A stretch of 64,000 nucleotides of DNA from Raja brachyura. Its lineage: Eukaryota. The stretch is from contig OY740805.1 of the NCBI GenBank assembly GCA_963514005.1, forward strand, positions 23,932,001 to 23,996,000. The letters run 5' to 3'. A program made the position numbers and the translations under genes. Of this stretch, positions 7,415 to 52,295 are shown piece by piece (the stretch's first letter is position 1; each line of letters opens with the position of its first letter). A model generated the notes under the pieces. It was not told where the DNA came from. It saw nothing but the letters and a program-made list of their open reading frames with translations, and did no database searches.

Positions 7415-7590
7415 TTAAACTGAAAATAGACACAAACAGCTGGAGTAACTCAGCGGGTCAGGCAACATCGCTGGAGAAAATGAATAGGCGACATTTGAGG
7501 TGGAGACCCTTCTTGATGAGGTATACAGCAACTCATCATTGTAACAGATAGAAGCTTCATCTAGTATTCGGGTTAGGACCGGAAGTTCAT
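7415..7590 (-). other. Probable exon 6 (3'UTR, or cytoplasmic-tail exon in the alternative frame); 3' end undefined
   Basis: Strong acceptor ctctcatttctcctttccag closing a 95-nt intron (7685-7591); runs into a short repeat near 7515. Confidence 0.55.
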
Positions 7591-7685
7591 CTGGAAAGGA
7601 GAAATGAGAGGAGATTGGATCAGAAATGAGAAGAGAGTTTGTCACATCATCGAGTCTTAGTGAAGGAGTTTGTGCACTCACTCAC

Positions 7686-7807
7686 CTGTTATCACACCTG
7701 GCCTCTCCTTATTGTTCATCTCTACAATGTTCCAACGATCATCACAAGCGTAGCCATGAGCACCAAAATGGAACTAGCTCCAAATGCCTTGTGCTGCCCA
7801 CCAACAC
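7686..7807 (-). CDS. MHC class I exon 5: [28 protein letters not shown] (stop 7724-7722) plus 36 nt of 3'UTR
   Basis: Acceptor gcttgctgggcag, donor CAG|GTGAGT; phase-1 continuation gives a linker and hydrophobic segment; unique sequence between repeats; size typical of a class I TM exon. Confidence 0.7.
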
Positions 7808-10800: not shown

Positions 10801-13800
10801 TGCATCGACCTAAAGGATGCATACTATTCAGTGCCAATAGACAAGGATCATCGCAGATATTTGAAATTTGTCTGGATGGGGCAGCTCTGGCAGTACAAAG
10901 CACTACCTAATGGATTGTCATCAGCACCCAGACTGTTTACCAAATTATTAAAACCAGCTTTAGCGTGTGTCAGGAAACAAAAGCATATTGTTATGGCTCA
11001 CATAGATAATATTTTAATCATGGGAAAAAAATTGGAGTTGGCCAAACTGGCCGTCTCAGCCACCGAGTACCTATTTCAAAAGCTGGGATTTGTCATTCAC
11101 CCAGATAAATCAAAATTGATGCCTTCTACTACTATGGACTATTTGGGGTTCACATTTGATTCTGTTCATATGTCTGTCACTTTGCCACCAAACAAAGCGT
11201 CAGACTTGATAGAAGCATGCAACAGCCTTACTGGCATCAGGAAACCATCTATTCGGCAAATAGCCAGAGTGATTGGGAAGCAAGTGGCTGCCTTTCTAGC
11301 CACACGATTTGGCCCACTACATTACCAAAACCTACAAAGGGCAAAAATAGCAGCACTCAAGCACCATGCAGGCCATTTTGGCAGGCCAATGCAATTACCA
11401 GGGAAAGCGAAATTAGAATTATAATGGTGGATAGACAGTGCACGACATTGCTCTAACGCCAACACTATCATAAATCCCTCGGTTATACTACAAACTGATG
11501 CCAGCGCGAAAGGTTGGGGAACAACTAATACCACCTCCAGTTGTGGTGGTAGATGGAGTGCACATGAATTAACTCTACTTCCGGCACTAGGAATTAATTA
11601 TCTAGAAATGCTGGGAGCATTTCATGGACTCCGGGCTTACTGTTCGGACATGCACCATCTGCACGTACGTTTACTGTGGTGGCTTATATCAATCATATGG
11701 GTGGAATAAAGTCGATATCCTGTGACGAATTGGTCAATACAATCTGGCACTGGTGCCTAGAAAGGAACATTTGGATATCAGCCACTTACCTTCCAGGTAG
11801 GCTAAATACAGTGGCGGACACCAGGTCACACAAATTTAATGACAACACCGAATGGATGTTGGACCGAAAAGTGTTTGCCAACATTGTAGATCGGTATGGA
11901 ACACCAGATATCGACCTTTTTGCATCCAGGCTAAATCACCAAATATCAACATATGTTGCATGGGAACCAGACCCTGGGGCAGTAGCGATGGATGCTTTCT
12001 CGCTACACTGGAGGGAATTGTTTTTCTATGCATTTCCCCCTTTTCTGCCTCATCAGTCGGGTCTTGCAAAAAACTAAACAAGACTCCGCATCGGGTATTC
12101 TGGTTGTTCCCGACTGGCCTACTCAACCATGGTTCCCTGTGGTATTGGACATGGCCACAGAACCGTGTATCCCAATAAATAAACGTCCGAGTTTATTGGT
12201 ACACCCTGTGACAGCGGAGAGTTACCCGTGCCATGACTGGATAAACCTATCGGTTTGCAGGATCTGAAAAGGCCACTTCTGGGTTATGGACTCTCGGACC
12301 GAACAATCAATGCCATCACAGCATCATGCAGGGAGTCCACCAGAAGACAGTACCTCACATACGTGAAGAAATGGGAGGTGTTCTGCACAAAAACGAACAC
12401 CACATATGACACAGCCACCATCACGGAAGTGCTGGAGTTCCTGGCAAGCCTTCATTTCGATGAAGGTTTGAGCTACAGTGCCATCAACTGTGCGAGAAGT
12501 GCCCTATCCAACTATCTTGGGCGAGGTTGCAATCACCTTACAGTGGGATCTCACCCTATGGTGTCAAAATTAATGAGGGGAATATTTAATTCAAATCCCC
12601 CCAGGCCTAGATATTCCCAGACGGGATATCAGCATAGTACTAACCATGGTCCGAGGGTGGGCACCAATAACGTCTCTTTCATTGAACAAACTGACCTACA
12701 AAATGGTCATGCTGATGGCATTCGTGACGGCACAATGGGTCCAGTCCCTCCATAAGTTAAGTATGGACGCCATGGTCATAACCAACAGCAAGGTAACTTT
12801 CGTTATACAGGGGTTACTCAAGCAAGACAGGCCTGGATCATCTGGCCAAAAGTTGGAATTCCTGGCATATCCCATAGAGAGCGATCTATGTATCGTGACC
12901 CACATTTTACGCTATATACAGGTCACCAAGAGTCTCAGGGGCACGGAGAGGGCTTTGCTCATAAGCCACAAACACCCTCATCATAGAGTCACCGTGCAAA
13001 CCATTTCAAGATGGTTACGGGTGGTATTGGGTGCAGCGGGGGTGGACACTAACGTTTTTAAATCTCACTCCACCAGGGCTGCATCCACATCTGCGGCTCG
13101 GATGATGGAAGTTCTAATGGACCACATCCTTGCAACAGCGGGTTGGACAATTGAAAAAAACCTTACAGCGGTTTTACAATAAACCCGTGGCCGTACCCGA
13201 GACGTTTGCGGGAAAAATATTAAGTTCTGTTTTATAATTTCCCCGATGTAGGGGTATTATTATTTGGTATTGTGAAATAAATACCTTTTTGTTTTTTCAG
13301 CACAGTTTCATGTCTAAAATATGTTAACATACTTCCTCCATTTCTCATAATGGCAGTGTGTGAGCATGGGTTGTTCCAGGGCATGAAATCACAGAGCTTT
13401 GAAATCTTCACGTAATCACTCACGTGACTCCGAAGTAAAATAGTAAGATTAAATGAGAACTTACCAGTTTGAAGTTTGATCTTTATTTTATGAGGAGTTA
13501 CGATGAGGGATTACGTGCCCTCCGCTCCCAAACCCTCTATTATAAAGGTCAACCGGTATGCTAGTTCTCTTATCTTACTATGTTAGTCAACTCTGGTATC
13601 TGTGATTTCACACCGTTGCTTTGAAGAATGTCGCGCATGCATGCTGGCGGGGTCTTCACGTAATCCCTCATCGTAACTCCTCATAAAATAAAGATCAAAC
13701 TTCAAACTGGTAAGTTCTCATTTAATCTTACTATTTTACACTTACACCAGCCAATTAACGTACAAACTTTTACCTCTTAGGAGTGTGGGAGGAAACCGAA

Positions 13801-16800: not shown

Positions 16801-19800
16801 GGAGTTAAGTATATTGTCTGAGAAACAGTGAATGAAAAGCTTTTTGATGCATGATAAAGTCTGATTAAAGATAGTCTGAGGATTGGAGGAATGAGTGATC
16901 TGTGGTCAGCATGGACTTGATATATGCATGCTGCATCTGTCAATCAATTAAAAATGTTAAATGCAGATGCTCGTTTGCACTGAAGATAGACACGAAATGC
17001 TAGAGTAACTCAGTGGGTCAGGCAGCAGCTCTAGAGAAAAGGAATAGGTGACGTTTCGGGTCGAGGCACTTTATCAGATTGGTGTCAAAAATATTTCTTA
17101 TTTTGGGCTGTATATTTGTCCGACAGCTCAAAGGAAAGGTAATGCTGGGACTATAAGGAAAGTCAATGCCGGGAAACAGAGGACTCACTGAGCTACCACG
17201 TAAATTGCATTCTGCCCCTCCCCAGTAATTGTAGCCCCAGGCTGAGGAGCAGCACGGAAAATATATTTAACAATGCACTATCCTTCTTGAAGATGGGATT
17301 TCCCCTTTATCATCTAGTTTCCTGCTGTTTGGCCCAAGCATCAGACTCCGTCTGAAGAAGGGTCTCGACCCAAAACATCACCCATTCCTTCTCTCCAGAG
17401 ATGCTGTCTGAGTTACTGCAGCTTTTTGTGTCTATTTTTGTTTTAAACCAGCATCTGCAGTTCCTTCCCACAAGACACTCCGTCTGCTGAATACCAGCCC
17501 TTTCAACACAGTTGCGGTGGCGCAGCGGTAGAGTTGCTGCCTTAAGCGAATGCAGTGCCAGAGACCCGGGTTCGGTGCCGATTGAGGAGGCTGTCTGTAC
17601 AGAGCTTGTACGTTCTCCCCGTGACCTGCGTAGGTTTTCTCCGAGATCTTCGGTTTCCTCCCACATTCCAAAGATGTACATGTAGGTTAATTGGCTTGGT
17701 AAATGTAAAAATTGTCCCTAGTGGGTGTAGGATAGTGTTAATGTGCAGGGATCACTGGTCGGTGTGGGTCTGTTTCCGTGCTGTATCTCTAAACTAGATT
17801 GCCCACATGTTTCATGTGCCATAATGCTCCTGGATTCGAGGGTATTGACTGTAATGAGAGCTAGGTCAAACTTGGATTGTTTTTTCTGGAACGTCAGAGG
17901 CTGTCTGTAGACATGATAGCAGTTTCTAAAATTATGACAGATGTAGATTTGGTGGAGAGTGAGAATTTTTTTTTCCCCCAGAATGGAAATGACAAAGACT
18001 AGAGGGTATAGGTTTAAGGTTAGAGGGACAGGCTTTAAAGGAAGAAGAAGAAGGGTATCGGCCCGAAACGTTGCCTATTTCCTTCATTCCACAGATGCTG
18101 CTGCACCCGCTGAGTTTCTCCAGCATTTTGTGTACCCCCAGGCTTTAAAGGAGATGTGCAGAGCATGTTTATTTTTTAAACATAGGGGAGTGGTGGGTGC
18201 CTGGAATGCACTGCCAGGGGCTGTGGTGGTGAGGCAGATGTGATAGAGGAATTTAGGAGGCTTTTGTATCAGCACATGGATATGCAGAAAATGGAGCTAT
18301 GTGGTTCACATGCAGGCTGGGGAGTTTAACTGGCATACGATACGATAGAAGTTTATTTATCCCAGGAGGGAAATTGGTCTGCCAACAGTAATAAAACACA
18401 ACAAGATGCATGAAACTCAATGCATTTTACGCACGCTTTGATAGGGAGAACACCGATGTGCCTTCCCGAGCCTCTATTCGCTGTGATGGTATTTCAGTCT
18501 CAGTCACAGAGGCCGACGTCAGGAAATCCTTGAGGGGGGTGAACCCTCGAAAAGCGTCTGGACCTGATGGTATACCTGGTCGTGTCCTAAAAACCTGTGC
18601 GGACCAACTGGCTGGAGTTTTTACGGACATTTTCAACCTGTCACTCCTGAGGTCTGAGGTTCCCACCTGCTTCAAAAGAGCATCAATAATTACGGTGCCC
18701 AAGAAGAGCAAGGTGACGTGCCTCAATGACTATCGACCTGTGGCACTAACGCCTGTGGTGATGAAGTGCTTCGAGAGGTTCATCATGGCACAAATCAACT
18801 CCTACCTCGACAAAAACCTGGACCCACTGCAGTTCGCTTACCGCCACAACAGATCAACGGTGGACGCAATCTCGCTGGCCCTCCACTCCGCTCTGGACCA
18901 CTTGGACAACAAAAACTCATATGTCAGGCTGCTATTTATTGACTACAGCTCGGCATTTAACACAATCATCCCCTCCAAGCTGGTTACCAAACTCGCAGAA
19001 CTGGGTCTTTGCGCATCCCTCTGCAATTGGATCCTCGACTTCCTCACCCACAGACCACAGTCTGTTCGTATTGGTGGAAATGTGTCAGACTCGATAACAA
19101 TCAGCACGGGAGCACCTCAGGGCTGCGTGCTCAGCCCCCTGCTGTACTCACTCTATACTCATGACTGCGTAGCCGGTCATAGCGCGAACTCCATCATCAA
19201 GTTCGCTGACGACACCACTGTTGTGGGACGTATCACTGATGGGGATGAGTCCGAGTATAGAAGAGAGATCGAGCGACTGTCCATATGGTGCCAGCACAAC
19301 AACCTGGCCCTCAACACCAACAAAACCAAGGAACTGATTGTGGACTTTGGAAGGAGTAGGATGGGGACCCAGAGTCCTGTTTATATCAACGGGTCGATGG
19401 TTGAAAGGGTCAAGAGCTTCAAATTCCTGGGCGTGCACATCTGTGAAGATCTTTCCTGGTCCGAGAACACAGATGCAATTATTAAGAAAGCTCATCAGCG
19501 CCTCTACTTCCTGAGAAGATTACGGAGAGTTGGTCTGTCAAGGAGGACTCTCTCTAACTTCTATAGGTGTACAGTAGGGAGCTTGCTGACTGGTTGCATC
19601 GTGGCTTGGTTCGGCAACTTGAGCGCCCTGGAGAGGAAAAGACTCCAAAAAGTAGTAAACACTGCCCAGTCCATCATCGGCTCTGACCTTCCTTCCATCG
19701 AGGGGATTTATCACAGTCGCTGCCTCAAAAAGGCTGGCAGCATCATCAAGGACCCACACCACCCTAGCCACACACTCATCTCCCTGCTACCTTCGGGCAG

Positions 19801-22800
19801 AAGGTACAGGAGCCTGAAGACTGCAACAACCCGGTTTAAGAATAGCTACTTCCCCACAGCCATCAGGCTATTAAACCTGGCTCGGAACTCTAATCATTAA
19901 TATCCCTCCATCTGTTATTTGCACTTTATTAATTTATTAAGTCATGAGTGTATTTATGTATAGAATTGTAGTCAATGCCTTCTATGTCCTGTTGTGCTAT
20001 GCAAAGAAAGATTTTCATTGTCCTGTCAGGGACACATGACAATAAACTCTTTTGACTTTGACTTGACTTTGAAACATGGAGTTAAAGTGACTAGTGGAAA
20101 CGATTGTGGATGTTCAAAAATTGGGGATGTGGGGGGGGGGGGGGGATGGGGAAGGGGAGTCAATCTACCTTACGAGAGAAGTGGGAGGAGTTATGGTTTG
20201 GAAGCCACAGGAAGCCAAAGGATCTGTACTGCATCTTGGTGGAACTAGTCGGTTGCTGAAGGTACTTCTCAGGTTGACCAGTGTGTCATGGAGGGGGTGA
20301 GCTGTACTGTCCAAGATGCTTCGCAGTTTGAGGAACATCCCTCCAAGACCACCTCCCATGAATCCAACTCCACTCCCAGGACGGAGCCAGCCTTCCCAGC
20401 ACACGGCAGCGAAGAAGACGGCACTGGCCACCACCAATTGGTGGAACATCTGCAGCATCTTACTGCAGATGTTGAAGGAGCCTCATATTCAGCATGGACA
20501 TTGAGGGCTGAGGGCCTGTTCCTGTACTATACTGATCTATGTTTCATGTCATTCAAACCCCATTTGTTCCTTCCCCATAAAATACGGTGAATTCCCCAAT
20601 ACTCTGCCAGGTTTCCATGAAAGATGATCCAAGTCCACGCCGACCATTGGTCACCCGTTCACACTAGGCTCCTAAGTCCTAGGAGCAAAATTTGGCCATT
20701 TGGCGTACCAAGTCTACTCTGCCATTCATTCATGGCTAATCTATCTTTCCCTCTTAACCCCATTCTCCTGCTTTCTCCCCATAACGCCTGATACGGTTAC
20801 TAATCAAGAATCTGTCAATCTCCGCCTTAAAAATATCCATTGACGACCTCCACAGCCGTTTGTGGGAATGAATTCCACAGATTCACCACCCTCTGACTAC
20901 AGACATTCCTCCTCATCTCCATCCTAAAAGCAAGTCATTTTATTCTGAAGGTATGGCCTCTGGTCCTCAACTCTCCCACTAGTGGAAACATCCTCTCCAC
21001 ATTCATTCTATCCAGACCTTTCACAATTCATTAAGTTTCAATGAGGTCCCCCCCTCATCCATCTAAGTTCCAGTGAGTACAGGCCCAGTGCCTTCAAACA
21101 ATCATCATATGTGAGCCCAATCATTCCTAGAATCCTTCTCGTAATCCTTCTCTGGACCCGCTCCAATGCCAGCACATCTTTCTTCAGAGGAAGGGATGTT
21201 TCCTTAAAAATATCCATTGACTTGGCCTCCACAGCCTTCTGTGGCAATTAATTCCACAGATTCACCACCCTCTAACTAAAGAAATTCCTCATTTCCTTTC
21301 TGCAAACAGGAGTGAAGCAGATTGTGGACAACATACAATGACTTACCTCCCCTCAATGTCATTGTCAGCGTCTCTGACAGGCTGCTGTGCTGGACCTGAC
21401 AGCTGTACATCTTCGGATCTTGGCCTTGTAGCTCGATTAGCAGTTCCATCCTGTACGTGTCATCGTGGTTTGGTAGAAGGATCTCGTTTATCCCATTGGA
21501 GACGGCCTGCCCATTTCTCAGCCAAGTGGCGTTGATTGCACGGGGGTAAAAGGGAGTGATGACACACCGGAGACCCTCGCCTCTGTCAGCCGTCGGCTCC
21601 CTTTTCAACACTGTTACCCCTGGAACAACTGGGGAAGAATGGAGAGTAACGTCACTAATTTAACACAGAGGACATTACCTTACAGATTGGGATTAGGCAC
21701 ACCAACCTTGCCGTCTTACCTCACAAACTAGTTAGCTCGTTCATGAAACATGGTGGAGTACATGCCCCACTCAGTATCAATTATGCCGAAGTAGAAATGA
21801 TTCAGATCATCAAGTTTTTGGCATTAGTATTACCAACGATCTATCACAGACCAAACACATTGATACAGCAGCCAAGAAGGCATACCAAGGCCTTTACTAC
21901 CTTAGGAGACTCAGGAAATTTGGGATGACTCCAATGATTCTTACAATCCTCTACAGAAGCTCCATGCTTGGTTTGGGAACAGCTCTACCCAAGACCACAA
22001 AAAATTGCAAAGAGTTGTAGATATAGCCCAGACCATCATGCAGTCCAGACTCCCCATCACTGACTCCATCTACATTTCACGCTGCCACAAAAAAAGCAGC
22101 CAACACAATCAAAGACTTGTCCCACCCCCGGTCATCCCTTCTTCCCCCTGCTCCCGTCAGGCAAATGGTACAGAAGCTTGAAAGCATGCACCAGCACCAC
22201 CTCTGCTGCCAGGTTTCTGAGCGGTCCTTCCATAAGCTAGGGTACTGTCCAATTCACCTCTACCCCATTTGATTCTGTCTAATGGACTGATGAACTGTAT
22301 CTTCCCCTTAGCACTATCTATTGTACTTGAGTTTAACTTTATTACATTTATGTACAGTATAATCTGATCTCTCTCTCCATCCTCACCCCATTCACCTGCC
22401 TTATCCCCATAACCTTAGACACCCGTACTAATTACTGGAATTTAGAAGGATGAGAGGGGATCTTGTGGAAACATAAAATTATAAAAGGACTGAACAAGCT
22501 AGATGCAGGAAAAATGTTCCCAATGTTGGGGGGAGTCCAGAACCAGGGGCCACAGTCTAAGAATAAAGGGGTGGCCATTTAAAATTGAGATGAGAAAAAA
22601 CGTTGTCACCCAGAGAGTTATGAATTTGTGGAATTCTCTGCCACAGAAGGCAGTAGAGGCCAATTCCCTGGATGAGTTTAAAAGAGAATTAGACAGACCT
22701 CTAGGGGCTAGCGGAATCAAGGGGTATGGGGAGAAGGCAAGCACCGGTTACTGATTGTGGAGGATCAGCCATGATCACAATGAATGGCGGTGCAGGCTCA

Positions 22801-25800
22801 AAGGGCCAAATGGCCTCCTCCTGCACCTATTTTCTATAATTCAAATCAAAAAACTCTATCTCTGCATTTCTTAAAAATCCACTGAATTGGCCTTGACAGC
22901 CTTCTGTGGCAAATAATTCCACAGATTCACGACCCTCTGATTAAATACATTTCTCCTCATCTCATTCCTAAAAGAATTCTGAGGCGATGACTAGTCCTAG
23001 ACTCTCCCACCAGTGGAAACATCCTCTCCACGTCCACTCTATCCAAGCCTTTCACTATTCCGCATGGAGCGAAGGAAATAGGCTACGTTTTGGGAGAAAG
23101 GGTTCTCAATTCTGAATTTTGTTGAAGGGTTTCGGCCCAAAATGTTGCCTATTTCCTTCGCTCCATAGACGCTGCTGCACCCGCTGAGTTTCTCCAGCAC
23201 TTTTGTCTACCAGTGATAGATAGATTCTTAATTAGTACGGGTGTCAGAGATTATGGGGAGAAGGCAGCAGAATGGGGTTAGCAGGGAAAGATAGATCAGC
23301 CATGACTGAATGGCAGAGTAGACTAGATGGGCCGAATTGCCTAATTCTGCTCCTATCACTGATGATCTTGGTCAGAAGCTCCCTCACCATCTGTGATTGG
23401 GAAATCGTCCCAGATCAGTGCTCGCTCACCATCATGGATGGGAGCTCCCTTGTTGTCTGGGTCAAGAGACGCCTCACAGTCCCAGAGTGGAAGCTCCCTC
23501 ACTACACTATATCAGAGCTCCCTCACCTCCCTGGATCAGAGCTCCCTCACTGCCCCAAATGGGTGCTCCCACACCTTCCCGGATCATAGCTCCCACTCCG
23601 TTACACGCAGGGGCTTAATTACTGAGGTCCTACCTACCTCTCCTCTCGAGTGCTGCGTCACCAAGCCGAAGAGCTTTCTGCAAGTCTGGAATGCAGCTGC
23701 TTTTCACTGCTTGAACTGCAGCATTATTAAAGAAAGTCTGTAGGTCCTGTGCATTGTTCAATAATATAAGGATACCAGTGGCAGAACAGTTCACTGTGAC
23801 CAGATCACAGTCAATCTCACCGACGTCTTGGATGGCAAACTTTACAAACAGATGGATCGTATTTTCAGACTGTGTGCAGCCCCAAAGCCCCTGGAAGTAG
23901 CTGATATCTGTAAGGAACCAATTGTCATTAATGAGAAGCCATTCCCTACTGTAGATTGGTTATTGCATGTGAACCAATCATAGTAGAGTAGCATCATTAA
24001 CCCCACCTTACTGTATGCTTTATATTAACACCCACTTCGTACATTAAGTAGTCTTGGAAGCGGTAGTGATGAATTAATGACTAACAACCTGCTGTACCGC
24101 TATACTATGTGTTACAATTAAAGATGACTTTAAACTCCAGGCCTCTGTAACATAATCATTTACACCAGCCAAACATGGAAATGCGACATGCACTGTGTGC
24201 CCACGAGATGCAGGGAGCAGCAGACTGTAGTGTGGGAATGATGCTGGAGCAGGGGCTGGGGTGGAGTAAATGCAGCGTTGTCGGTGATGGTACAGCACGC
24301 AATGTCCCAAACGACCTGTGAACACGGGTGAGCAAATGTGTACAGTCAGGGTGAGGGGGTACATGGGATGACCATGGTGAGGGGCTTTGTGTGCACTCAC
24401 ATCATTGTGTGCCAAGCAGGGGATCAAATAGGAGAGGGTGTACCGTGCATCGTTGTGGGCAGAGCAGGACCTTACAATGAGAGATGGTGCAGCATGCATC
24501 ATTGTGGGCAGAGTAGGGGATTACAGTGAGATGGTGTATTGAGGATCAGGGTGTGTATAGAGTACGGGTTACAGTGAGATGATGTGCATTGCATCATTGT
24601 AATTCTAATTGTAATTCATTTATTCACCAAGTATGTAAAAACATGCAAAGAATTTGATTTGCCATTCAGTCACACCAAAAAAGCAACAAGACACATAAAA
24701 CAACATAAAAATTTACAGAAACACCCATCACTGTGATGGGATGGAAGGCATTGGCGTATTATCTTCTTCCCTGCTTTTCTCTCGTGTTCGCGGGGCAGTC
24801 GAACCATCCGCAGGCAGGGGTGATCAAAGCTCCCGCAGCCGGAGATGAAGTTCCCGCGTCGGGGCGATCGAAGCTCCTGCAGTTTGAGCTCCCAAAGTCG
24901 ATCCCTAACCAAGGGACCATGATTTCCACGATGTTAAGTCCGCAGGCTCCTGAAGTCGATCCCTAACCAAGAGACCGCTAGCTCCACGATGTTAGGCCGC
25001 AGTGTGGACAGATTTACGATACGGAAAAAGTCGCATCTCCGACGAGGAAAGAGGCAAAAACGTTTCCCCCCATCCCCCACATAATACAAAACTGAAGATA
25101 CAATAACACATACCTTTAACAATGGACTCTAAACAACAAAAGAAGAAACGGACAACACGGACTGTTGGCGAGGCTGGCTGCCATCGTACGATGCCACCTG
25201 GTAGTAATCCATTGTGTGTATATTGCAAGGGATAGTGAGAGATGGTGTACTGTGGATCAGTTTATACAGTGCAGTGGATAGTGAGACATGGTGTACTGTG
25301 CATGGAAACATAGAAAATAGGTGCAGGAGTAGGCCATTTGGCCCTTTGAGCCTGCACCGCCATTCAATATGATCATGGCTGATCATCCAACTCAGTATCC
25401 CGTACCTGCCTTGTCTCCATACCCCCTGATCCCTTTAGCCACAAGGGCCACATCTAACTCCCTCTTAAATATAGCCAATGAACTGGCCTCAACTACCTTC
25501 TGTGGCAGAGAATTCCAGACAATTTCACTCTCTGTGTGAAAGTGTTTTTCTCATCTCGGTCCTAAAAGACTTCCCCCTTATCCTTAAACTGTGACCCCTT
25601 GTTCTGGACCTCCCCAACATCGGGAACAATCTTCCTGCATCTAGCCTGTCCACCCCTTTAAGAATTTTGTAAGTCTCTATAAGATCCCCCATCTTCTAAA
25701 TTCCAGCGAGTACAAGCCGAGTATATCCAGTCTTTCTTCAAATGGAAGCCCTGCCATCCCAGGAATCAGTCTGTTGAACCTTCTCTGTACTCAGTTTATA

Positions 25801-28800
25801 CAGTGCAGGGGATAGTGAGAGATGGTGTACTGTGCATCGGTGTGGGCAAAGCAGGGGATCACAGTGAGATGGTTTACTATGCATCAGTGTGCATAGAGCA
25901 GGGATTACAGTGAGCGATGATGTACTGTACATCTGCATGTGTATAGTGCAGGCGATAGTGACAGAGAGAGTGTACTGTGCATCATCGTGGGCAGAGAAGG
26001 GGATCACAGTGAGAGATGGTGTACTGTGGATCAGTTTATACCGCAGGGGATCACAGTGAGAGATAGTGTACTGTGGATCAGTTTATACCGCAGGGGATGA
26101 CAGTGTGAGATAGTACACTGTGAATCTGTTTGTACAGTGCAGGGGAATCACAGTGAGAGATGGTGTAGTGTGCATCAGTGTGTCTGTAGAGCAGGGCGAT
26201 CGCATTGAGACCAAAGTTGTCGGCACGTTGCTGCCTTACAGCGCCAGAGACCCGGGTTCGATCCCGACAATGAGTGTACGGAATCTGTACGTGCTCACTA
26301 TGACCACGCCGGTTTTCTCCAGGTGCCTCCGGTTTCCTCCCATATTCCAAAGCAGGGAAAGGAATTCCTGCTGCTTCATCGGATCCATCTGATAGCGTGA
26401 AATTTACTGTGAGCCTGAGAGGTGAGAGGGGCACAAAGACACATACCAAACACTGAGCCAAATATCCTCAATTGTTCAGAGACAATCATGTGAATGGTGT
26501 CTGCGATCTCCTTCTGCCGTGTCCAGTACTCTGCCGTGAAGCCGTTCGCAATCCACTGCTGCCTGGGTACCACTTCTTTGAGGGAGCTGTCAAAGTAATC
26601 TATCTGCAGATCATCCAACATCCCAACCCTGGCGAAGGCTGGCAGTTCAGGAACGCTGAGGGAGTAGGTGCCGAAATATTTCAAGCTGTGGGAATCTGAG
26701 CAAAGGACACAAGGGAAGAGTGTTAGAAACAGACCAAACGAAAAGGTCGAATGCCCAGAGAATACCCATCAGCTGAAGGGTGGCACGGTGGCATAGCGGT
26801 AGAGCTACTGCCTTACAGCACCAGAGACCCAGGTTCAATCCTGGCTATGGGTGCCTGTCTGTACGGAATTTGTACGTTCACCCCGTGACCTGCGCGGGTT
26901 TTCTCCGATATTCTCAGTTTCCTCCCACCATCCAAAGACGGACAGGTTTGTAGGTTAATTGGCTTGGTATAAATATAAAATGATCCCTAGTGTGTGTAGG
27001 GTCGTATTAATGTGCGGGGAATCGCTGGTCGGTGCCCCGAAGGGCCTGTTTCCACGCTGTATCTCTAAACTAAACTAAAACAAAAAAGAGCCTGATGGAA
27101 TAAGTTGGGGGTTAGATTTATCATCGTCACGTGTACCAAAGTACAGCAAAATGTTTTGTTTTGGATGCTATCCAAACAGGCCAGACATACTATACATAAA
27201 TACAATTAATTCAAATTGAGTACAACAGATAGAGCAAAGGGGAAAATGCAGAAAATATGGTTTACACTTTACATTTTAGAGATATAGCCCTTTTAGGAAA
27301 CAGGCCCTACGGCCCACCGAGTCTGTGCCCACCAGCAATCATCCCATACACTATCAGTATCCTACACGCTAGGGACAATATTCAATTTTACCAAAGCCAA
27401 TTAGCTGACAAACTGTAGCATCCAAAAAAACCCATGTGGTTTCAGGGAGAACGTACAAACTCCATACAGACAGCACCCGTTGTCAGTCTCTGGCGCTGTA
27501 AGGCAGCAACTCTACCACTTCACCACTGTGCCACACTTCCCAGCATTGATTTAATACAAAAGGAGCTGCAAATGCTGGTTTATACCAAAGATAGACAGAA
27601 GATTGCTGGAGTAACTCAGCAGATGAGGGAGCATCTCTTGCGAAAATGGATTGGTGATGTTTCGGGTCGGGACCCTTCTTTAGATTGATTGTAAGTGGAG
27701 TGGGGGGTGGGGACTGGAAGCAAGAAAACACCAGGACAAATGAGGGCTGGCAACATATGACCTCAGGCAGGGTGGTTCCCTGATAGGGCAAGAATGGTCT
27801 ATCTTTAGTTCTTGACATTGACAAGCAAGAATTGCATTGCCCTATCTGGGACATGACAATAAAACTCTCTTGACTCTCTTGTAAGTGTAACAGTTCCATG
27901 AACATAGCTCAACGTATGCAATGTGGCGATGGTGAATCGGACAGTACCCTAGCTTATGGAAGGACTGCTCAGAAACCTGACAACAGAGGGGATGAAGCTG
28001 TTCCCGATGTTGGGGGAGTCCAGAACAAGGGGTCACAGTCTAAGGATAAGGGGGAATTCCTTTAGGACCGAAATGAGGAAAACATTCTTTACACAGAGAG
28101 TGGTGAGTCTCTGGAATTCTCTGCCACAGAAGGTAGTTGAGGCCAGTTCATTGGCTATATTTAAGAGGGCGTTAGATGTGGCACTTGTGGCTAAAGGGAT
28201 CAGGGGGTATGGAGAGAAGGCAGGTACGGGATACTGAGTTGGATGATCAGCCATGATCACATTGAATGGCGGTGCAGGCTCGAAGGGCCGAATGGCCTAC
28301 TCCTGCACCTATTTTCTATGTTTCTATGTTTCTATGTTTCCTGAGCCTGGTGGTGTGTGCTTTCAAACTTCTGTACCTTCTGCCAGATGGGAGCAGGGAG
28401 AAGGAGGATATGAAAGGTTTGATCGAGCAGGATGTCTGTGATAATGAAGGCTGATTTTCCAAGGCCCTCTGAATTGTAGATGTCGAATACTCTCCACTTA
28501 GAGTCATCAAATCATTGAGCTCGGAAACAGGTCCTCCGGCTCAACTTGGCCATGCTGACCAAGATGCCCCATACAAGCTAGTTTCATTTGCTGCATTTTC
28601 CCCAAATAGTCATTCAGCACAGAAACAGGTCCATCAGCCCAGCTTGCCCATGCTGACCAAGGTTCTCCATTTACAATAGTCCCACCTGCCCACGTTTGGC
28701 CCATATCCTACCAAACCTTTCATTGTCATTGAGTGATACAGTGTGGAAACTGGCCCTTCGGCCCAGCTTGTCCGCACCGGCCAGCATGTCCCAGCTGCAC

Positions 28801-31800
28801 GAGTCCCACCTACCTGCGTTTGGTCCATATCCCTCCAAATTTGTCCTATCCATATACCTGTCTAACTGTTTCTTAAACATTGGGATAGTCCCAGCCTCAA
28901 CTGTTTCCTCTGGCACCTTGTTCCTTACATCCACCACCCTTTGACTGAAAAGGTTACCAAGCAGATTCCTATTAAATCTTTTCCCCTTCACCTTGAACCT
29001 AAGTACTCTGGTCCTCGATTCCCCCACACTGGGCAAGAGACTCTGTGCATCTACCTGATCTATCCCCCCTCGTGATTTTGTACACCTCTATAAGATCACC
29101 GCTCATCCACCTGCGCTGGAAGGAATAGAGATCCAGCCTACTCAACCTCTCCCTATAGCTCAGGCCCTCTAGTCCTGGCAACATTCTCATTAATCTTCTC
29201 TGAACCCTTTCAAGCTTGACAATATCTTTCCTATAACATGGTGCCCAGAACTGAACACAATACTCTAAATGCGGCCTCACCAACGTTCCTATCCGATTGT
29301 CTTTTATATGTTGTTGTTCCTGCATCAACTACCTCCTCTGGCAGAATGAGTGCACCTCCAACCTGCAGACACCATCCCAAAATAAACACTCCCCCTTGTG
29401 TTTGCATTCTGTGCCCCACTATCACTAACAGCCCTTGTTAAAGAAGCAGTACAAGCAGGGCCGGCACAGTGGTGCAGCAGGTTTATAGCGCCAGGGGACT
29501 CAGTGTGGTCTGAAGGACCCATTTCCACGCTATATCTCAAAATAAACTAAAACTTTCCACGCAAAAGGGTGACCAAAACTGAATATAATACTCCAATGTC
29601 ACCACACCTGCGCCTTGTACAGCTGTAACATAACATCACATTTTTATTTCAAAATAGACTTTATTCGAGTAATAAATATATACAATACATCAACCGTGCG
29701 AAAAAAAATCCATCCAACATTTTCGGAAGCTATACAAATTGCTCCATACAGTCTGTATACATTTTTCAAAAATTTCAAATTTCGCGAATCGATCCCCCAC
29801 CCGTGCCACTCATGTGGCCCTCCGGCATGGGATACCTTCCCTTATTTTGAGGGGCGTCTCCACCATACTGTGCCCCCCATGTCCAGCAGCGGAAGGACCT
29901 TAGACTGTGGCCCTCCCCCACCGTGCCTTGGCGTTGGCTGCCCCGAGCTTCAATGTGTCCCTCAGCACGTACTCCTGCAGTCTGCAGTGGGCCAGTCGGC
30001 AACATTCCCCGACGGACATCTCGCTCTGCTGGGTGGTGAACAAAGCTCGGGCAGACCAGAGAGCGTCTTTCACTGAGTTGATTACCCTCCAGCAGCACTT
30101 GATGTCAGTCTCTGAATGTGTCCCTGGGAACAATCCGTAACTCACCGAGTCCTCTGTGACGGAGCTGTTTGGAATAAAGCGTACCAGGGACCCTTGCATT
30201 TTTCTCCAGACTCTTTGGGCAAATCCACACTCTGCAAAGAGGTGGGCAACCGTCTCCACTCCATAGCAGCCGTCCCGAGGGCAGCGTGCGCTGGCAGTGA
30301 GGTTCCGACGGTGCAGGAAGGATCTGACTGGGAGGGCTCCCCTCACCGCCAGCCAAGCCAGGTCTTGGTGCTTGTTGGTGAGTTCTGGCGATGAAGCATT
30401 TTTCCAGACAAGCTGGGCAGTCTGCTCAGGGAACCACGCCACCGGGTCCATCGAGTCCTTTCCCCGCAGTGTCTGCAGGACATTCTGTGCTGACCACTGC
30501 CCAATGGACATGTGGTCAAAGGTGTTGGTCCGGAAGAACCTTTCCACAGACGACAGATGGGGCGGCAGTGTCCAGCTGACTGGCACCATGCGTGGCATCT
30601 GCGCCAGGCCCATCCTTCGCAACACCGGGGACAGGTAGAACCTCAGCAAGTAGTGACACTTGGTGCCCACGTGCCTTGGCTCTACACTCCGCCTGATGCA
30701 GCCACACACGAAGGTGGTCATCAGGATGAGAGCGACGTTGGGCACGCTTTTACCCCCGTTGTCTGCTGACTTGTACATTGTGGCCCGTCGCACCCGGTCC
30801 ATCCTCGACCCCCAGATAGTTCATCGGGAAGACGGCCCGGGTGATCCCTGTGGCGTAGGAAGGAGGGACAGGCCACACCTGTGCCAAGTACAGCAGGCCT
30901 GAGAGCACCTCACACCTGATAACCAAATTCTTTCCCGTTATGGAGAGGGAGCGTTGCCTCCACAGCTCCAGCTTCCTCCCTACCCTGGCTATCCGCTCCA
31001 GCCAATTCTTGTTACATGCCTCAGCCCCCCCGAACCAGATCCCCAGCACCTTCAAGAGGTCAGGCTTGATGGTGAAGGGGACGGAAGATCTGTCGGGCCA
31101 GTTGCCAAAGAGCATGGCCTCGCTCTTCCTGCGGTTCACCCTGGCTCCCGTGGCCGACTCAAACTGGTCGCAGATCCTAATCAGTCTGCGGACCGACCCT
31201 GGATCCGAGCAGAAGACAGCGACATCGTCCATGTACAGGGAGGTCTTTACTTGAATGCCCCCACTGCCGGGCAGTGTCACTCCTCTAATGCTCGCATCCT
31301 TCCTGATGGATTCGGCAAAGGGTTCAATACAGCAGACAAACAAGACAGGAGAGAGAGGGCAACCCTGCCTGACTCCAGACCTTACAGGGAAACTGTCTGA
31401 TTCCCACCCATTGATGTGGACTGCACTACGGATGTCGGTGTAGAGCAGTTTGATCCAATTCCTGATTCCCTCCCCAAAACCCATTTTGGAGAGCACGTCC
31501 TGCGAAATCCTGTCAAAGGCCTTCTCCTGGTCCAAGCTGACTAGGCAGGCGTCCACCCGACAAGACATGAGATGTCCATAACATCACAACCTCTATACTC
31601 AAACCCCTGACTGATGAAGGCCAGTGTTCCCAAAGTCTCCTTGACCAACTTATCTAACTGTGAAGTCACTTTTGAGGAAGTATGTGACTGCACTCATTGA
31701 TCCCTCTGCTCTATAACACTCCCCAGAGCTCAACCCTTCAGTTTGTAGGTCCCGCGCTAGGTTGTGACCTTTCCTTGGTGCATCCAGCACTTACCGTGTT

Positions 31801-34800: not shown

Positions 34801-35760
34801 CCCTCTGATCCCCTTAGCCACAAGGGCCACATCTAACTCCCTCTTAAATATAGCCAATGAACTGGCCTCAACTACCCTCTGTGGCAGAGAGTTCCAGAGA
34901 CCCACCACTCTCTGTGTGAAAAAAGTCCTTCTCATCTCAGTCCTAAAGGATTTCCCCCTTATCCTTAAGCTGTGACCCCTTGTCCTGGACCTCCCCAACA
35001 TTGGGAACAATCTTCCTGCATCTAGCCTGTCCAACCCCTTAAGAATTTTGTAAGTTTCTATACGATCCCCTCTCAATCTCCTAAATTCTAGAGAGTATAA
35101 ACCGAGTCTATCCAGTCTATACCTATCCACTTTACTTTTAAATGTTAAAATCGATCCTGCCTCCACCACTTCTGCAGGAAGATCATTCCACACAGCCACC
35201 ACTCTCTGAGTAAAGAAGTTCCCCCTCATGTTACCCCTAAACTTCTGTCCCTTAATTCTCATGTCATGCCCTCTTGTTTGAATCTTCCCTACCTTCAATG
35301 GGAAAAGCTTATCCACGTCAACTTTGTCTATCCCTTTCATCATTTTAAAGACCTCAATCAAGTCCCCCCCCCTCCCCCTTTAACCTTCTGCGCTCCAAAG
35401 AATAAAGACCTAACTTGTTCAACCTTTCTCTGTAACTTAGTTGCTGGAACCCAGGCAACATTCTAGTAAATCTCCTCTGTACGCTCTCTATTTTGTTGAC
35501 ATCCTTCCTATAATTAGGCGACCAAATCTATTCCTATTTCCCACCCCTTGGTCAAAGATTGTCCACTTCCCTCCACTGGTGCTGTCCAACCCGCTGAGTT
35601 TCTCCTGTTATTTTCTCGAAGAATATAAATTGGCTTTTCCAAATGCAATCCGTGACATTCGCCGCCCCACAACCACTGTCTTACCTGCGTGGTCTCCCGA
35701 TACAGAGCAGAGAGAAAAGGCGGCGAACAGGAGTGTTGCAGGTACGGTGTAACTTTGCAT
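7722..35760 (-). CDS. Non-classical MHC class I-like heavy chain, spliced CDS join(35760-35685, 26695-26447, 23907-23638, 21628-21347, 7807-7722), 320 aa
   Basis: Five exons read by hand. All four joins are phase 1 with GT..AG, and the lengths 76+249+270+282+86 = 963 nt stay open to TAG. Domain order is leader/alpha1/alpha2/alpha3 (C1-set Ig)/hydrophobic C-terminus. Linking exon 5 across a 13.5 kb intron is an inference. Confidence 0.85.
9409..10215 (+). pseudogene. DIRS ORF1 (gag-like)
   Basis: Position in the element; P-x-N-C...VP-x-VN-x-x-IW and LFG motifs typical of DIRS ORF1; frameshifted near the end. Confidence 0.7.
10430..12267 (+). pseudogene. DIRS pol: RT - RNase H - DAM-like methyltransferase, frameshifted
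   Basis: [11 protein letters not shown]; [14 protein letters not shown]; AHIDNILI (YxDD mutated); TDASAKGWG; INYLEM; [10 protein letters not shown]; YAFPPF; [11 protein letters not shown]. Confidence 0.9.
12255..13235 (+). pseudogene. DIRS tyrosine recombinase, frameshifted
   Basis: SAM-like N-terminus ([12 protein letters not shown]), [12 protein letters not shown] (H-x-x-R), ATAGW. Confidence 0.9.
17515..17795 (+). mobile_element. tRNA-derived SINE (HE1/V-SINE-like); other copies at ~2765-2900, 4375-6050 (split), 8960-13925 (split by DIRS), 26778-27080, 27280-27535, 32115-32410, 45992-46275, 47640-47945, 57543-57840, 62230-62890
   Basis: A box TGGCGCAGCGG, B box GGTTCGRTCC-like, conserved GTACGTTCTCCCCGTGACC core, (CTAAA)n tail. 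Confidence 0.85.
18417..20069 (+). mobile_element. Rex1/Babar-type LINE, 5'-truncated; RT ORF open 18410-19900
   Basis: [54 protein letters not shown]; AATAAA followed by a (TTGAC)n-like tail; TSD TGAAAC (18411-18416, 20070-20075). Confidence 0.9.
21347..21628 (-). CDS. MHC class I exon 4, alpha3 C1-set Ig domain
   Basis: LRC...FYP..I..TW...LPNHDDTY...[10 protein letters not shown]; acceptor ttcttccccag, donor G|GTAAGT; 282 nt. Confidence 0.95.
23375..23600. repeat. Degenerate ~23-bp tandem repeat (AGCTCCCTCAC core) just inside intron 3
   Basis: About 8 imperfect units. Confidence 0.7.
23638..23907 (-). CDS. MHC class I exon 3, alpha2 domain ([11 protein letters not shown]...[21 protein letters not shown])
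   Basis: Not in the ORF track; translated by hand. Q96-like Gln, GC (C101) and C164 equivalents, typical L-x-x-G-x-x-x-L-x-R end; acceptor ttccttacag, donor G|GTAGGT; 270 nt. Confidence 0.9.
24360..26200. repeat. Degenerate ~45-bp minisatellite (GCAGGGGATCACAGTGAGAGATGGTGTACTGTG...) in intron 2, interrupted by two TEs
   Basis: Unit visible at 24360-24600, 25210-25303 and 25790-26200. Confidence 0.85.
25303..25790 (-). mobile_element. CR1 3' fragment inserted in a minisatellite
   Basis: CATAGAAA tail and CR1 3' sequence. Confidence 0.85.
26447..26695 (-). CDS. MHC class I exon 2, alpha1 domain (DSHSLKYF...[13 protein letters not shown]...PRQQW...EYWTRQ...)
   Basis: Canonical SHSLxYF start, G-x-x-DD-x-x-x-x-x-FDS, PR-x-x-W and YW motifs; acceptor ctttgctcag, donor G|GTATGT; 249 nt. 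Confidence 0.95.
27985..28340 (+). mobile_element. CR1 3' fragment
   Basis: [10 protein letters not shown]...GYGEKAG followed by (TTTCTATG)n. Confidence 0.85.
29641..31576 (-). mobile_element. Tx1/L1-clade LINE, 5'-truncated and frameshifted
   Basis: [27 protein letters not shown]-terminal CPxxxC...H...C zinc knuckle; AATAAA and A-rich tail; 12-bp TSD CATAACATCACA (29629-29640, 31577-31588). Confidence 0.9.
34545..35525 (-). mobile_element. CR1 3' fragment with another CR1 3' fragment (34681-35117) nested in it
   Basis: Two CR1 subfamily tails; TATAC duplicated at both junctions. Confidence 0.8.
35685..35760 (-). CDS. MHC class I exon 1, signal peptide [25 protein letters not shown]
   Basis: Strong Kozak context GCCGCCAAGATG, hydrophobic core, phase-1 donor G|GTAAG, located in a CpG-rich region. 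Confidence 0.85.
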
Positions 35761-37970: not shown

Positions 37971-40895
37971 TTAAAGAAGGAACTGCAGATGCTGGAGAAT
38001 CGAGGGTTACACAAAAAGCTGGAGAAACTCAGCGGGTGCAGCAGCATCTAAGGAGCGAAGGAGATAGGCGACGTTTCGGGTCGAGACCCTTCTTCAGACT
38101 GGTCAGGGATCAGGGAAACGAGAGATATAAACAGTGATGTGGAGAGATAAGGAACAATGAGTGAAAGATATGCAAAAAAGTATTGGTGATAAAGGAAGCA
38201 GGCCATTGTAAGCTGTTTGTGGTGTGAAAATGAGAAGCTAGTGCGACTGGGGGGGGGGGGGGGGAGATGGAGAAGGAATGTCAGGGCCAGAGGGCTGAGG
38301 GAGAGGTGGGGGGGAGGCATTCTGTGTTAACAGAATTGAGAAAATTCAATGTTTAAGCCCAGAGGATGCAGACTCCCCAAGCGGAATATGAGGTGCTGTT
38401 CCTCCAACTTGCGGTGTTGATCACTCTGGCCATGGAGGAGGCCCAGGACCGAGAGGTCGGATACGGAGTGGGAGGGGGAGTTGAAGTGCTGAGCCACCGG
38501 GAGGTCAGGTTGGTTATTGCGGACCGAGCGGAGGTGTTCGGCGAAACGATCGCCCAGCCTCCGCTTCGTCTCACCGATGTAGATCAGCTGGCATCTGGAG
38601 CAACGGATGCAGTAGACGAGGTTGCAGGGGGTGCAGGTGAACCTCTGTCGGACTTGGAATGACTGCTTGGGTCCCTGAAAGGACTGGATGGGGGAGGTGA
38701 AGGGACAAGTGTAGCATCTCTTGCGGTTGCAAGGGAAAGTGCCCGGGGAAGGAGTGGAGCGGGAGGGAAGGGAAGAATTGACGAGGGAGTTGCGGAGGGA
38801 GCGGTCTTTGCAGAAGGCAGACGGGGGATGATGGGAAGATGTGGCGAGTGGAGGGGTCACGTTGGAGGTGACGAAACTGGCGGAGGACTATCTGTTGTAT
38901 GCGCTGGCTGGTGGGGTGAAAGGTGAGGACCAGGGGGACTCGGCCCTTGTTGTGAGTGGGGGAATGGGGAGAGAGGGCAGTGTTGCGGGGTATGGAGGAG
39001 ACCCTGGTGCGAGCCTCAGCTATAGTGGGGGAGGGGAAACCCCGTTCTCTGAAGAACGAGGACATTTGCGATGACCTGGTGTGGAACACGTCATCCTGGG
39101 AGCAGATGCGGCGTAGACGGAGGAATTGGGAATAGGGGATGGAGTCCTTACAGGAAGCAGGGTGGGAGGAAGAGTAGTCCAGGTAGCTGGTGAGGTCAAG
39201 GAATGGTAGGGAAATGTCGTAAATGGTCCAAGTATATTTGAGTGCCGGATGGAAGTTGGCGGTGAAATGGATGAAGTCAGCCCGTGCCCAGAGGAGCAAC
39301 CCATACCCATCCATTGACACCCTCCTCCGCCTAGCGGAGTTGGTCCTTACCCTCAACAACTTCTCTTTTGACTCCTGCCATTTCCTCCAAACACAAGGCG
39401 TAGCTATGGGCACACGCATGGGCCCTAGCTACGCCTGCCTCTTTGTCGGGCACGTCGAACAATCTTTGTTCTCGGCGTACCAGGGCCCCACCCCCGACCT
39501 TTACCTCCGTTACATTGACGACTGCTTTGGTGTCACCTCCTGCATCCACACACAACTGACTGACTTCATCCATTTCACCACCAACTTCCATCCGGCACTC
39601 AAATATACTTGGACCATTTACGACATTTCCCTACCATTCCTTGACCTCACCATCTCTATTGCAGGTGATACACTCCTGACTGACATCCACTACAAACCAA
39701 CTGACTCCCACAGCTACCTGGACTACTCTTCCTCCCACCCTGTTTGCTGTAAGGACTCCATCCCCTATTCCCAATTCCTCCGTCTACGCCGCATCTGCTC
39801 CCAGGATGACGTGTTCCACACCAGGTCATCGCAAATGTCCTCGTTCTTCAGAGAACGGGGTTTCTCCTCCCCCACTATAGATGAGGCTCGCACCAGGGTC
39901 TCCTCCGTACCCCGCAACACTGCCCTCTCTCCCCATTCCCCCACTCACAACAAGGGCCGAGTCCCCCTGGTCCTCACCTTTCACTCCACCAGCCAGCGCA
40001 TACAACAGATAGTCCTCCGCCAGTTTCGTCACCTCCAACGTGACCCCTCCACTCGCCACATCTTCCCATCATCCCCCCTGTCTGCCTTCTGCAAAGACCG
40101 CTCCCTCCGCAACTCCCTCGTCAATTCTTCCCTTCCCTCCCGCTCCACTCCTTCCCCGGGCACTTTCCCTTGCAACCGCAAGAGATGCTACACTTGTCCC
40201 TTCACCTCCCCCATCCACTCCTTTCAGGGACCCAAGCAGTTATTCCAAGTCCGACAGAGGTTCACCTGCACCCCCTGCAACCTCATCTACTGCATCCGTT
40301 GCTCCAGATGCCAGCTGATCTACATCGGTGAGACGAAGCGGAGGCTGGGCGATCGTTTCGCCGAACACCTCCGCTCGGTCCGCAATAACCAACCCGACCT
40401 CCCGGTGGCTCAGCACTTCAACTCCCCCTCCCACTCCGTATCCGACCTCTCGGTCCTGGGCCTCCTCCATGGCCAGAGTGATCAACACCGCAAGTTGGAG
40501 GAACAGCACCTCATATTCCGCTTGGGGAGTCTGCATCCTCTGGGCTTAAACATTGAATTTTCTCAATTCTGTTAACCCAGACTGCCTCCCCCCCCACCTC
40601 TCCCTCTGCCCTCTGGCCCTGACATTCCTTCTCCATCTCCCCCCCCCCCCCCAGTCGCACTAGCTTCTCATTTTCACACCACAAACAGCTTACAATGGCC
40701 TGCTTCCTTTATTACCAATACTTTTTTGCATATCTTTCACTCATTGTTCCTTATCTCTCCACATCACTGTTTATATCTCTCGTTTCCCTGATCCCTGACC
40801 AGTCTGAAGAAGGGTCTCGACCCGAAACGTCGCCTATCTCCTTGGCTCCTTAGATGCTGCTGCACCCGCTGAGTTTCTCCAGCTTTTTGTGTAAC
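37971..40895 (+). mobile_element. Penelope-like element (RT + GIY-YIG): inverted partial copy 37971-~39282 joined to forward copy ~39283-40895
   Basis: GVAMGTRMGPSYA, YLRYIDDCF, NLIYCIRC..C..IYIGET, GLN; two copies in inverted orientation; 17-bp TSD TCATAGCTGCTTACCTG (37954-37970, 40896-40912). Confidence 0.95.
40804..40831 (+). ncRNA. Minimal hammerhead-ribozyme-like motif in the Penelope terminal repeat (mirror copy 38070-38097 on minus)
   Basis: CTGAAGA-A-GGGT(CTCG)ACCC-GAAACGTC: CUGANGA and GAAA core boxes, helix II, palindromic ACGU, GUC site; helix I only about 2 bp. Confidence 0.6.
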
Positions 40896-51130: not shown

Positions 51131-52295
51131 AAATACCAGGGGATCGAGGATCTTGTGGGAGCGAGGAACTGAAGGGATTCAACATTAGTCAGGAAATGGT
51201 GTTCGGTAAACTGTTGGGACTGAAGGCTGATAAATCCCCAGGGTCTGATCCCAGAGCACTCAAGGAGGTGGCCCTGGAAATTGTGGATGCATTGATGATC
51301 ATTTTCCAATATTCTCTCGACTCTTTGATCAGTTCTTGTGGACTGGAGAGTAGCCTATGCAGGATCGCAGGCAGTGACTAGTGTGGTGCCACAAGGGGCA
51401 GTGCTGGGACCCCAGTTATTTACAATATATATTAACGATTTAGACGAAAGAATTAAATGTAACATCTCCAAGTTTGTGGATGAAACAAAGCTGGGTGGTA
51501 GTGTGAGCTGTGAGGAGGATGCAATGAGGCTGCAGGGTGACTTGGATAGGTTGGGTGAGGGGGAATATGCATGGCAGATGCAGTATAATGTGGATAAATG
51601 TGAGGTTACCCACTTTGGTGGCAAGGACAAGGCAGATTATTATCTGAATGGTGTCAGACTAGGAAAAGGGGAGGTGCACGAGACCTGAGTGTCCTTTTAC
51701 ATCAGTCACTGAAAATAAGCATTAAAGAAGGAACTGCAGATGCTGGAGAATCGAGGGTTACACAAAAAGCTGGAGAAACTCAGCGGGTGCAGCAGCATCT
51801 AAGGGGCGAAGGAGATAAGCGACGTTTCGGGTCGAGACCCTTCTTCAGACTGAAAATAAGCATGCAGGCGCAGCAGGCAGGGAAGAAAACAAATTGCATG
51901 TTGGCCTTCATTGCAAGAGGTTTTGAGTTTAAGAGCAAGGAGGTCCTACTGCAGTCATACAGGGCCCTGGTGAGACCGCACCTGGAGTATTGTATGCAAT
52001 TTTGGTCTCATAATTTGAGGACGGACATTGTTTCTATTGAGGAAGTGCAGCATAGGTTCACCAGGTTAATTCCCAGGATGGCGGCACTGACATATGATGA
52101 AAGGATGGGTCGACTGGGCTTGCATTCAGTGGAAATTTAGAAGGATGAGAGGATATCTTGTAGAAACATATAAAATTCTTAAAGGATTGGACAGGCTAGA
52201 TACATGAAACATGTTCCTGATGTTGGGGGAGTCCAGAACCAGGGGTCACAGTTTAAGAATAGGGGGTAGGCCATTTAGGACTGAGATGAGGAAGG
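51131..52295 (+). mobile_element. Older CR1 fragments (RT region), interrupted by a Penelope-end repeat at ~51722-51850
   Basis: KSPG, VPQGAVLGP, KFVDE, RPHLEY motifs with stops and deletions. Confidence 0.8.

Follow-up and report, generated by a model that had tools for sequence, protein, structure and literature searches.

The stretch of Raja brachyura DNA considered here (64,000 nucleotides (nt), positions 23,932,001 to 23,996,000 of contig OY740805.1, assembly GCA_963514005.1; hereafter 'the window', G000:C25:23.93-24.00 Mb in our catalogue) contains an MHC (major histocompatibility complex) class I gene. It lies on the minus strand and comprises five coding exons (Table 1) that, spliced by script, give an open frame of 320 amino acids (aa) throughout; all internal junctions have AG/GT ends. 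We regard it as practically certain that we are dealing here with the skate orthologue of UFA, a class Ib lineage of the elasmobranch MHC.

The closest known structure to each of its three extracellular domains is Protein Data Bank (PDB) entry 8GM8, released 2024-11-27 under the title 'shark nonclassical MHC class I, UFA'. This entry is the top match for alpha1 (E 6e-18) and for alpha3, and the sole PDB match for alpha2 (E 9e-12). Its heavy-chain sequence (P0022) agrees, compared by eye, with Gcirratum_UFA in supplemental file 10 of PMC10751288, and its chain B is beta2m. An AlphaFold model made for P0002, the orthologue in Amblyraja (mean predicted confidence, pLDDT, 72.8), which served solely to find PDB neighbours, leads to the same place: 8GM8 is ranked first by Foldseek (E 2e-26) and first by VIA-align (Z 21.7, root-mean-square deviation 3.3, 244 residues aligned; next row 20.5). 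Over alpha1-3 the window protein shares 43-83% identity with 23 UFA rows, and never more than 33% with the remaining rows, its nearest relatives being skate proteins at 81-83%. In a tree of 67 rows, the window protein and these 23 form a single branch of 24, within which it falls in a skate branch inside a batoid branch, each with a Shimodaira-Hasegawa-like approximate likelihood-ratio (SH-aLRT) support of 100; nurse-shark UFA is in the same group, while UAA, UBA, UDA and UGA lie outside it. The tree comes from a quick search without bootstrap, with the incomplete rows P0096, P0103, P0078 and P0123 dropped, and its outgroup labels were assigned by eye, some of them loosely.

The first-pass annotation had called this a highly divergent non-classical lineage, either one already described in cartilaginous fishes or a new one. 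The first option stands; the second falls, because the gene groups inside a described lineage that shares the same features, namely a short alpha1 without R84 or N86 and an alpha2 stripped of its anchors. That the gene represents a class I lineage as yet without a name, or is a pseudogene in decay, we consider exceedingly improbable. Alpha2 has admittedly diverged so far that Pfam MHC_I misses it (the exon has no Pfam match at E<=0.1), but the protein nests inside UFA with support of 100, its frame is open with AG/GT junctions, and the exons are found spliced in related species. This last support comes from contigs of X1-X3, sequencing runs of related organisms that are presumed to be RNA, and covers the three 3' joins: alpha2 to alpha3 (X1 and X2), alpha3 to exon 5 (X1-X3, by record positions), and the joining of the 3' untranslated region (UTR) exon to a donor ~36 nt past the stop (X1 and X2). 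The literature searched, from which subscription journals were mostly absent, yielded no primary paper on UFA, nor one for 8GM8 or 9CH4.

Table 1. Features of the window (positions counted from its first letter)
Feature	Position	Strand	Evidence or remark
Exon 1: start codon (ATG) with predicted signal peptide; 25 codons + 1 nt	35685..35760	-	tblastn with skate orthologues, 68-72%; GT donor; signal peptide judged by eye
Exon 2: alpha1, 249 nt = 83 codons	26447..26695	-	AG/GT sites; Pfam MHC_I E 3e-10
Exon 3: alpha2, 270 nt = 90 codons	23638..23907	-	both ends matched by X1-X3 contigs
Exon 4: alpha3, C1-set Ig domain	21347..21628	-	Pfam C1-set E 9e-14; 8GM8 E 1e-27
Coding part of exon 5: hinge (short, polar), hydrophobic tip and TAG stop	7722..7807	-	tblastn with skate homologues; X1-X3 contigs
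Last exon, non-coding (3' UTR), start only	7451..7593	-	joints 7682-7572 (X1), 7711-7593 (X2)
Broken retroelement with reverse transcriptase, in intron 4	9277-13179	+	Pfam RVT_1
Retrotransposon open reading frames (ORFs), LINE-type and GIY-YIG-bearing	18395-19897, 29903-30820, 39223-40572, 48685-51354, 54129-55562

The surroundings are those expected of UFA. PMC10751288 assigns UFA, along with UDA and UEA, to a class Ib cluster whose limits are brd2 and beta2m. UDA exons occupy 24.040-24.056 Mb of the skate contig, ~73 kb from UFA and on the same strand; the alpha1 they encode differs at two residues from little-skate UDA in the supplement of PMC10751288. A beta2m exon follows at 24.160 Mb, ~190 kb from UFA, and a class II alpha exon is found at 12.57 Mb. 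UFA is MHC-linked. Sawfish shares the UDA-then-UFA gene order: in the sawfish table of PMC10751288, a gene with a name like that of UDA homologue P0175 is followed by three with names like those of UFA homologues P0004 and P0005. One database protein, P0001 (Rhinoraja longicauda LOC144602948, an NCBI model of 809 aa), fuses UDA and UFA; this is probably an annotation error, since the two are separate genes here.

A search of the genome found one match to the alpha2 exon and, among 19 matches to alpha3, one above 44% identity, and UFA therefore appears to be single-copy in this skate, although such copy counts are lower bounds. In rays UFA looks expanded (P0004-P0021), with four distinct proteins in Mobula birostris, five in Hemitrygon akajei, and two each in Hypanus sabinus and Pristis pectinata. 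Two ray proteins, P0010 and P0012, make up a distinct subtype without Y59 and R24.

Classical class I molecules hold the ends of a peptide by means of eight conserved residues, whose role is described in PMC8236899. All eight are present in the classical shark protein P0068, to which we aligned the window protein, and just two, Y7 and Y59, are retained in skate UFA; at the remaining positions it has V84, N143, Q146, D147, A159 and A171. Position 86 is a gap, so that N86 is absent; Q63 of alpha1 is likewise retained. On this count the protein is no classical class Ia (UAA) molecule. When nurse-shark UFA is set against HLA-A2, as in the alignment published in the supplement of PMC10751288, positions 146 and 147 sit one column over (A, Q), and the anchors are lost there too. 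What the first-pass annotation had read from the letters of this DNA thus survives proper alignment by either route: the retention of Y7 and Y59, the short alpha1 of 83 codons without R/Y84 or N86, and an alpha2 helix with no equivalents of T143, K146, W147, Y159 and Y171.

Alpha2 retains the cysteine pair C101-C164. It has an extra pair as well, at the equivalents of HLA positions 126 and 133, where F/L126 and W133 are usual, and both of these cysteines are present in 18 of the 24 UFA rows. The second pair likely forms a second alpha2 disulfide.

Hydrophobicity was scored over 37 positions that we take to line the groove (numbered through P0068). The mean Kyte-Doolittle (KD) value of the skate UFA groove is +0.95, with 62% hydrophobic residues, and across the 23 other UFA rows it ranges from +0.38 to +1.51. 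Lower values are found for UAA (-0.09), ten UDA (-0.57) and ten bony-vertebrate U proteins (-0.17). The earlier impression of a hydrophobic groove is borne out, at +0.95 versus about -0.1 in classical molecules, and skate UFA shares with CD1 a hydrophobic groove devoid of peptide anchors, as judged by a sequence proxy rather than by pocket geometry. The skate groove is less hydrophobic than that of nurse-shark UFA (+1.51), and includes the charged residues R24, D34, E123, D147 and D167. With reference to unpublished data, PMC10751288 describes the binding region of UFA and its biophysical features as very similar to those of CD1, and PMC12562908 mentions, as a personal communication, a crystal structure and mass spectrometry suggesting that UFA and UGA bind CD1d-like lipids. 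Taken together, skate UFA quite probably binds lipid, too.

Which lipid is another matter. Against four sharks other than nurse shark, 10-13 of 33-37 groove positions of skate UFA are identical, and the contrast between groove and framework is weaker there than in the nurse-shark comparison. When the alpha2 helix, whose alignment is uncertain, is set aside, skate and nurse-shark UFA are identical at 6 of 27 groove positions and at 41 of 92 others. Two other skates, by comparison, match at 31 of 37 groove positions, and UDA, between skate and shark, at 35 of 37. On the floor of the groove, R24 or K24 is found in 17 of 19 batoid UFA rows and in none of five from sharks, and the two ray paralogues without R24 are also without D34. 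This co-variation, a single event only, hints at an R24-D34 salt bridge. The UFA groove retains its character though not its residues, and the ligand in skate may differ from that in shark; because groove residues are poorly shared, what is found for the shark ligand may not carry over.

These same observations could be taken further. Skate UFA might have drifted away from lipid altogether, to a small non-lipid ligand, or to a narrowed or empty groove that acts as a natural killer (NK)-type receptor ligand in the manner of MILL or the NKG2D ligands. The low groove identity between shark and skate (7-13 of 33-37 in five comparisons) and the batoid-specific R24/K24 would suit such drift, and MILL provides a precedent for a class I-like molecule that is beta2m-bound and GPI-linked (PMC6193965). 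We think this distinctly unlikely: the groove is hydrophobic in all 24 UFA rows and conserved among skates, and the R24-D34 co-variation points to a salt bridge more than to residues touching a ligand.

The C-terminus of skate UFA is peculiar, for the stop codon comes directly after the hydrophobic tip and leaves no cytoplasmic tail. The combination of transmembrane (TM) segment and cytoplasmic tail seen in classical class Ia molecules is missing, and so is that of CD1, which in CD1b-d includes the motif YXXZ. Nor is this a quirk of one species. We compared 23 native UFA ends, those of the window protein and of 22 homologues that represent four genera of sharks and several of batoids; the set excludes the crystal construct P0022 and the unscored P0024-P0026. 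In 22 of the 23 the most hydrophobic 15-mer is followed by 0-3 residues, none of them K or R. None of 42 other class I proteins ends in this way (46 were given, four of which could not be scored). An open stretch with Tyr/Leu motifs lies 3' of the stop, and we considered it as the lost exon of a cytoplasmic tail, cut off in skate alone. We rejected this on two grounds: the frame closes at the same point in sharks and rays, and splicing treats the exon as 3' UTR.

Each of the 22 tail-less UFA proteins carries, 22-27 residues before its end, a small-x-small motif that is G-V-G in most cases. Glycosylphosphatidylinositol (GPI) attachment requires small residues at omega and omega+2, anything but proline at omega+1, and a signal of 20-30 residues (PMC2119539, PMC11466713). 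Skate UFA has the sequence features expected of a GPI-anchored protein: a predicted N-terminal signal, a site that fits the omega rule (the best candidate is G293, of G293-V-G), and a hydrophobic-ending signal, 27 residues long after omega. It is predicted to be GPI-anchored, then, with odds somewhat on the side of the prediction. The literature searched yielded no statement on a GPI anchor in UFA; subscription papers and the Almeida 2021 thesis may report the tail-less end.

ZAG is a class I-like molecule that is secreted and carries lipid, and UFA might resemble it, or else be held in the membrane by a short, tail-less TM tip, while still binding lipid. The window protein does end in an uncharged run of 21 residues that could span a thin membrane, and one ray isoform (P0013) has a polar end. 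Against this, the best 15-mer of the UFA tip has a KD of 2.0-2.8, compared with ~3.0-3.9 in most controls, so that it is less hydrophobic than the genuine TM segments of the set; basic stop-transfer residues are lacking; and the G-x-G motif keeps a steady distance from the end across sharks and rays. Both versions of this alternative seem to us rather unlikely.

We favor, instead, at a probability of about 0.78, a molecule with a groove that has shed six of the eight peptide anchors and is likely loaded with lipid, and with a tail-less end that, by prediction, gives way to a GPI anchor. Several points weigh against it. The groove KD score is unspecific for lipid binders: two UBA rows reach +0.41 and +1.22. 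The lipid data on UFA are unpublished or personal communications (PMC10751288, PMC12562908). Skate and nurse-shark UFA are identical at only 7 of 37 groove positions, compared with 50 of 120 other positions of alpha1-2. One UFA row, the Narcine isoform X2 (P0013), departs from the tail-less hydrophobic end; the GPI call comes from our own rule-based scan, not from a trained predictor; and the tree, besides being a quick one without bootstrap, includes no CD1 or MR1 row.

If the favored reading is right, the life of the molecule might run as follows. As is usual for an MHC class I heavy chain, UFA would pair with beta2m, with which nurse-shark UFA was crystallised. Its lipid would be acquired independently of TAP, in the endoplasmic reticulum (ER) or secretory path; cleaved near G293 and linked to GPI, the molecule would then display that lipid on the cell surface, for recognition by T cells or by an innate receptor. 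It would do so without the tyrosine-motif endosomal sorting that CD1b-d use. A broader proposal has, in our estimate, even odds: that UFA, from sharks to skates, is a GPI-anchored, lipid-presenting, CD1-like class I molecule with no cytoplasmic sorting signal, whose groove has been re-tuned in batoids, through the R24-D34 floor, to a different set of lipids.

Other class I genes lie elsewhere in this genome. Alpha2 exons of UGA type, seven in number and each with a matching alpha3 nearby (L006-L012, L016-L021 and L024), are found at 18.15, 20.65, 21.71 and 22.90 Mb of contig G000:C25, at two places on C352, and on C127, whereas the review PMC12562908 calls UGA single or low copy. Some of the seven are probably assembly duplicates or pseudogenes, because two of these loci, L006 and L007, show no difference over 900 nt, and a TGA is present in both. 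Contig G000:C1218 (L002, L004, L015) encodes a classical-looking alpha1 with Y7, Y59, R84 and NQS; apart from this it has an alpha2/alpha3 pair of class I. As for the retroelement in intron 4 of UFA, its flanking ORFs have no Pfam match; they look like those of a DIRS-type element.

The lineage and its probable function were already known, and a structure has been deposited, so that what we describe is mostly rediscovery. The additions are a full skate UFA gene model with its synteny, and the tail-less end with its predicted GPI signal, a point that cell biology can test. Were UFA GPI-linked, the oldest CD1-like molecule and CD1b-d would come to their lipids along different routes, and this would bear on whether lipid presentation had one origin or two. 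The large difference between the shark and skate grooves makes a direct comparison of ligands worthwhile.

Among known systems, nurse-shark UFA (8GM8) is the nearest, at 43% identity to the skate protein over alpha1-3. The two have in common the short alpha1 without R84/N86, the loss of alpha2 anchors, the 126/133 cysteine pair, and a place beside UDA, but differ in the groove, which in skate is less hydrophobic and has R24/D34 on its floor and G9. The nurse-shark crystal construct ends at alpha3, and is uninformative about the C-terminus. Shark UGA (PDB 9CH4, released 2026-03-18), like UFA, is reported to be a CD1-like lipid binder (PMC12562908). It is the nearest branch to UFA in the quick tree (SH-aLRT 90, not starred), yet is only 27-31% identical to skate UFA and retains W147, Y171, a TM segment and a cytoplasmic tail; the window protein lies outside the clade of G. 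cirratum and L. erinacea UGA, on a separate branch. Tetrapod CD1, as aligned in the supplement of PMC10751288, resembles UFA in its class I fold with beta2m, its short alpha1 end, its lost anchors and its hydrophobic groove. The authors of PMC10751288 call orthology between UFA and CD1 hard to assess, and the endosomal traffic of CD1b-d depends on the tail motif YXXZ (PMC11481681). CD1 has a TM segment and tail, whereas UFA has no tail. The MILL proteins are not known as lipid presenters. In mouse, MILL1 and MILL2 are beta2m-associated, GPI-anchored and class I-like (PMC6193965); these are mammalian proteins, likened to UFA here for their beta2m partner and for the manner of anchoring, which in UFA is predicted.

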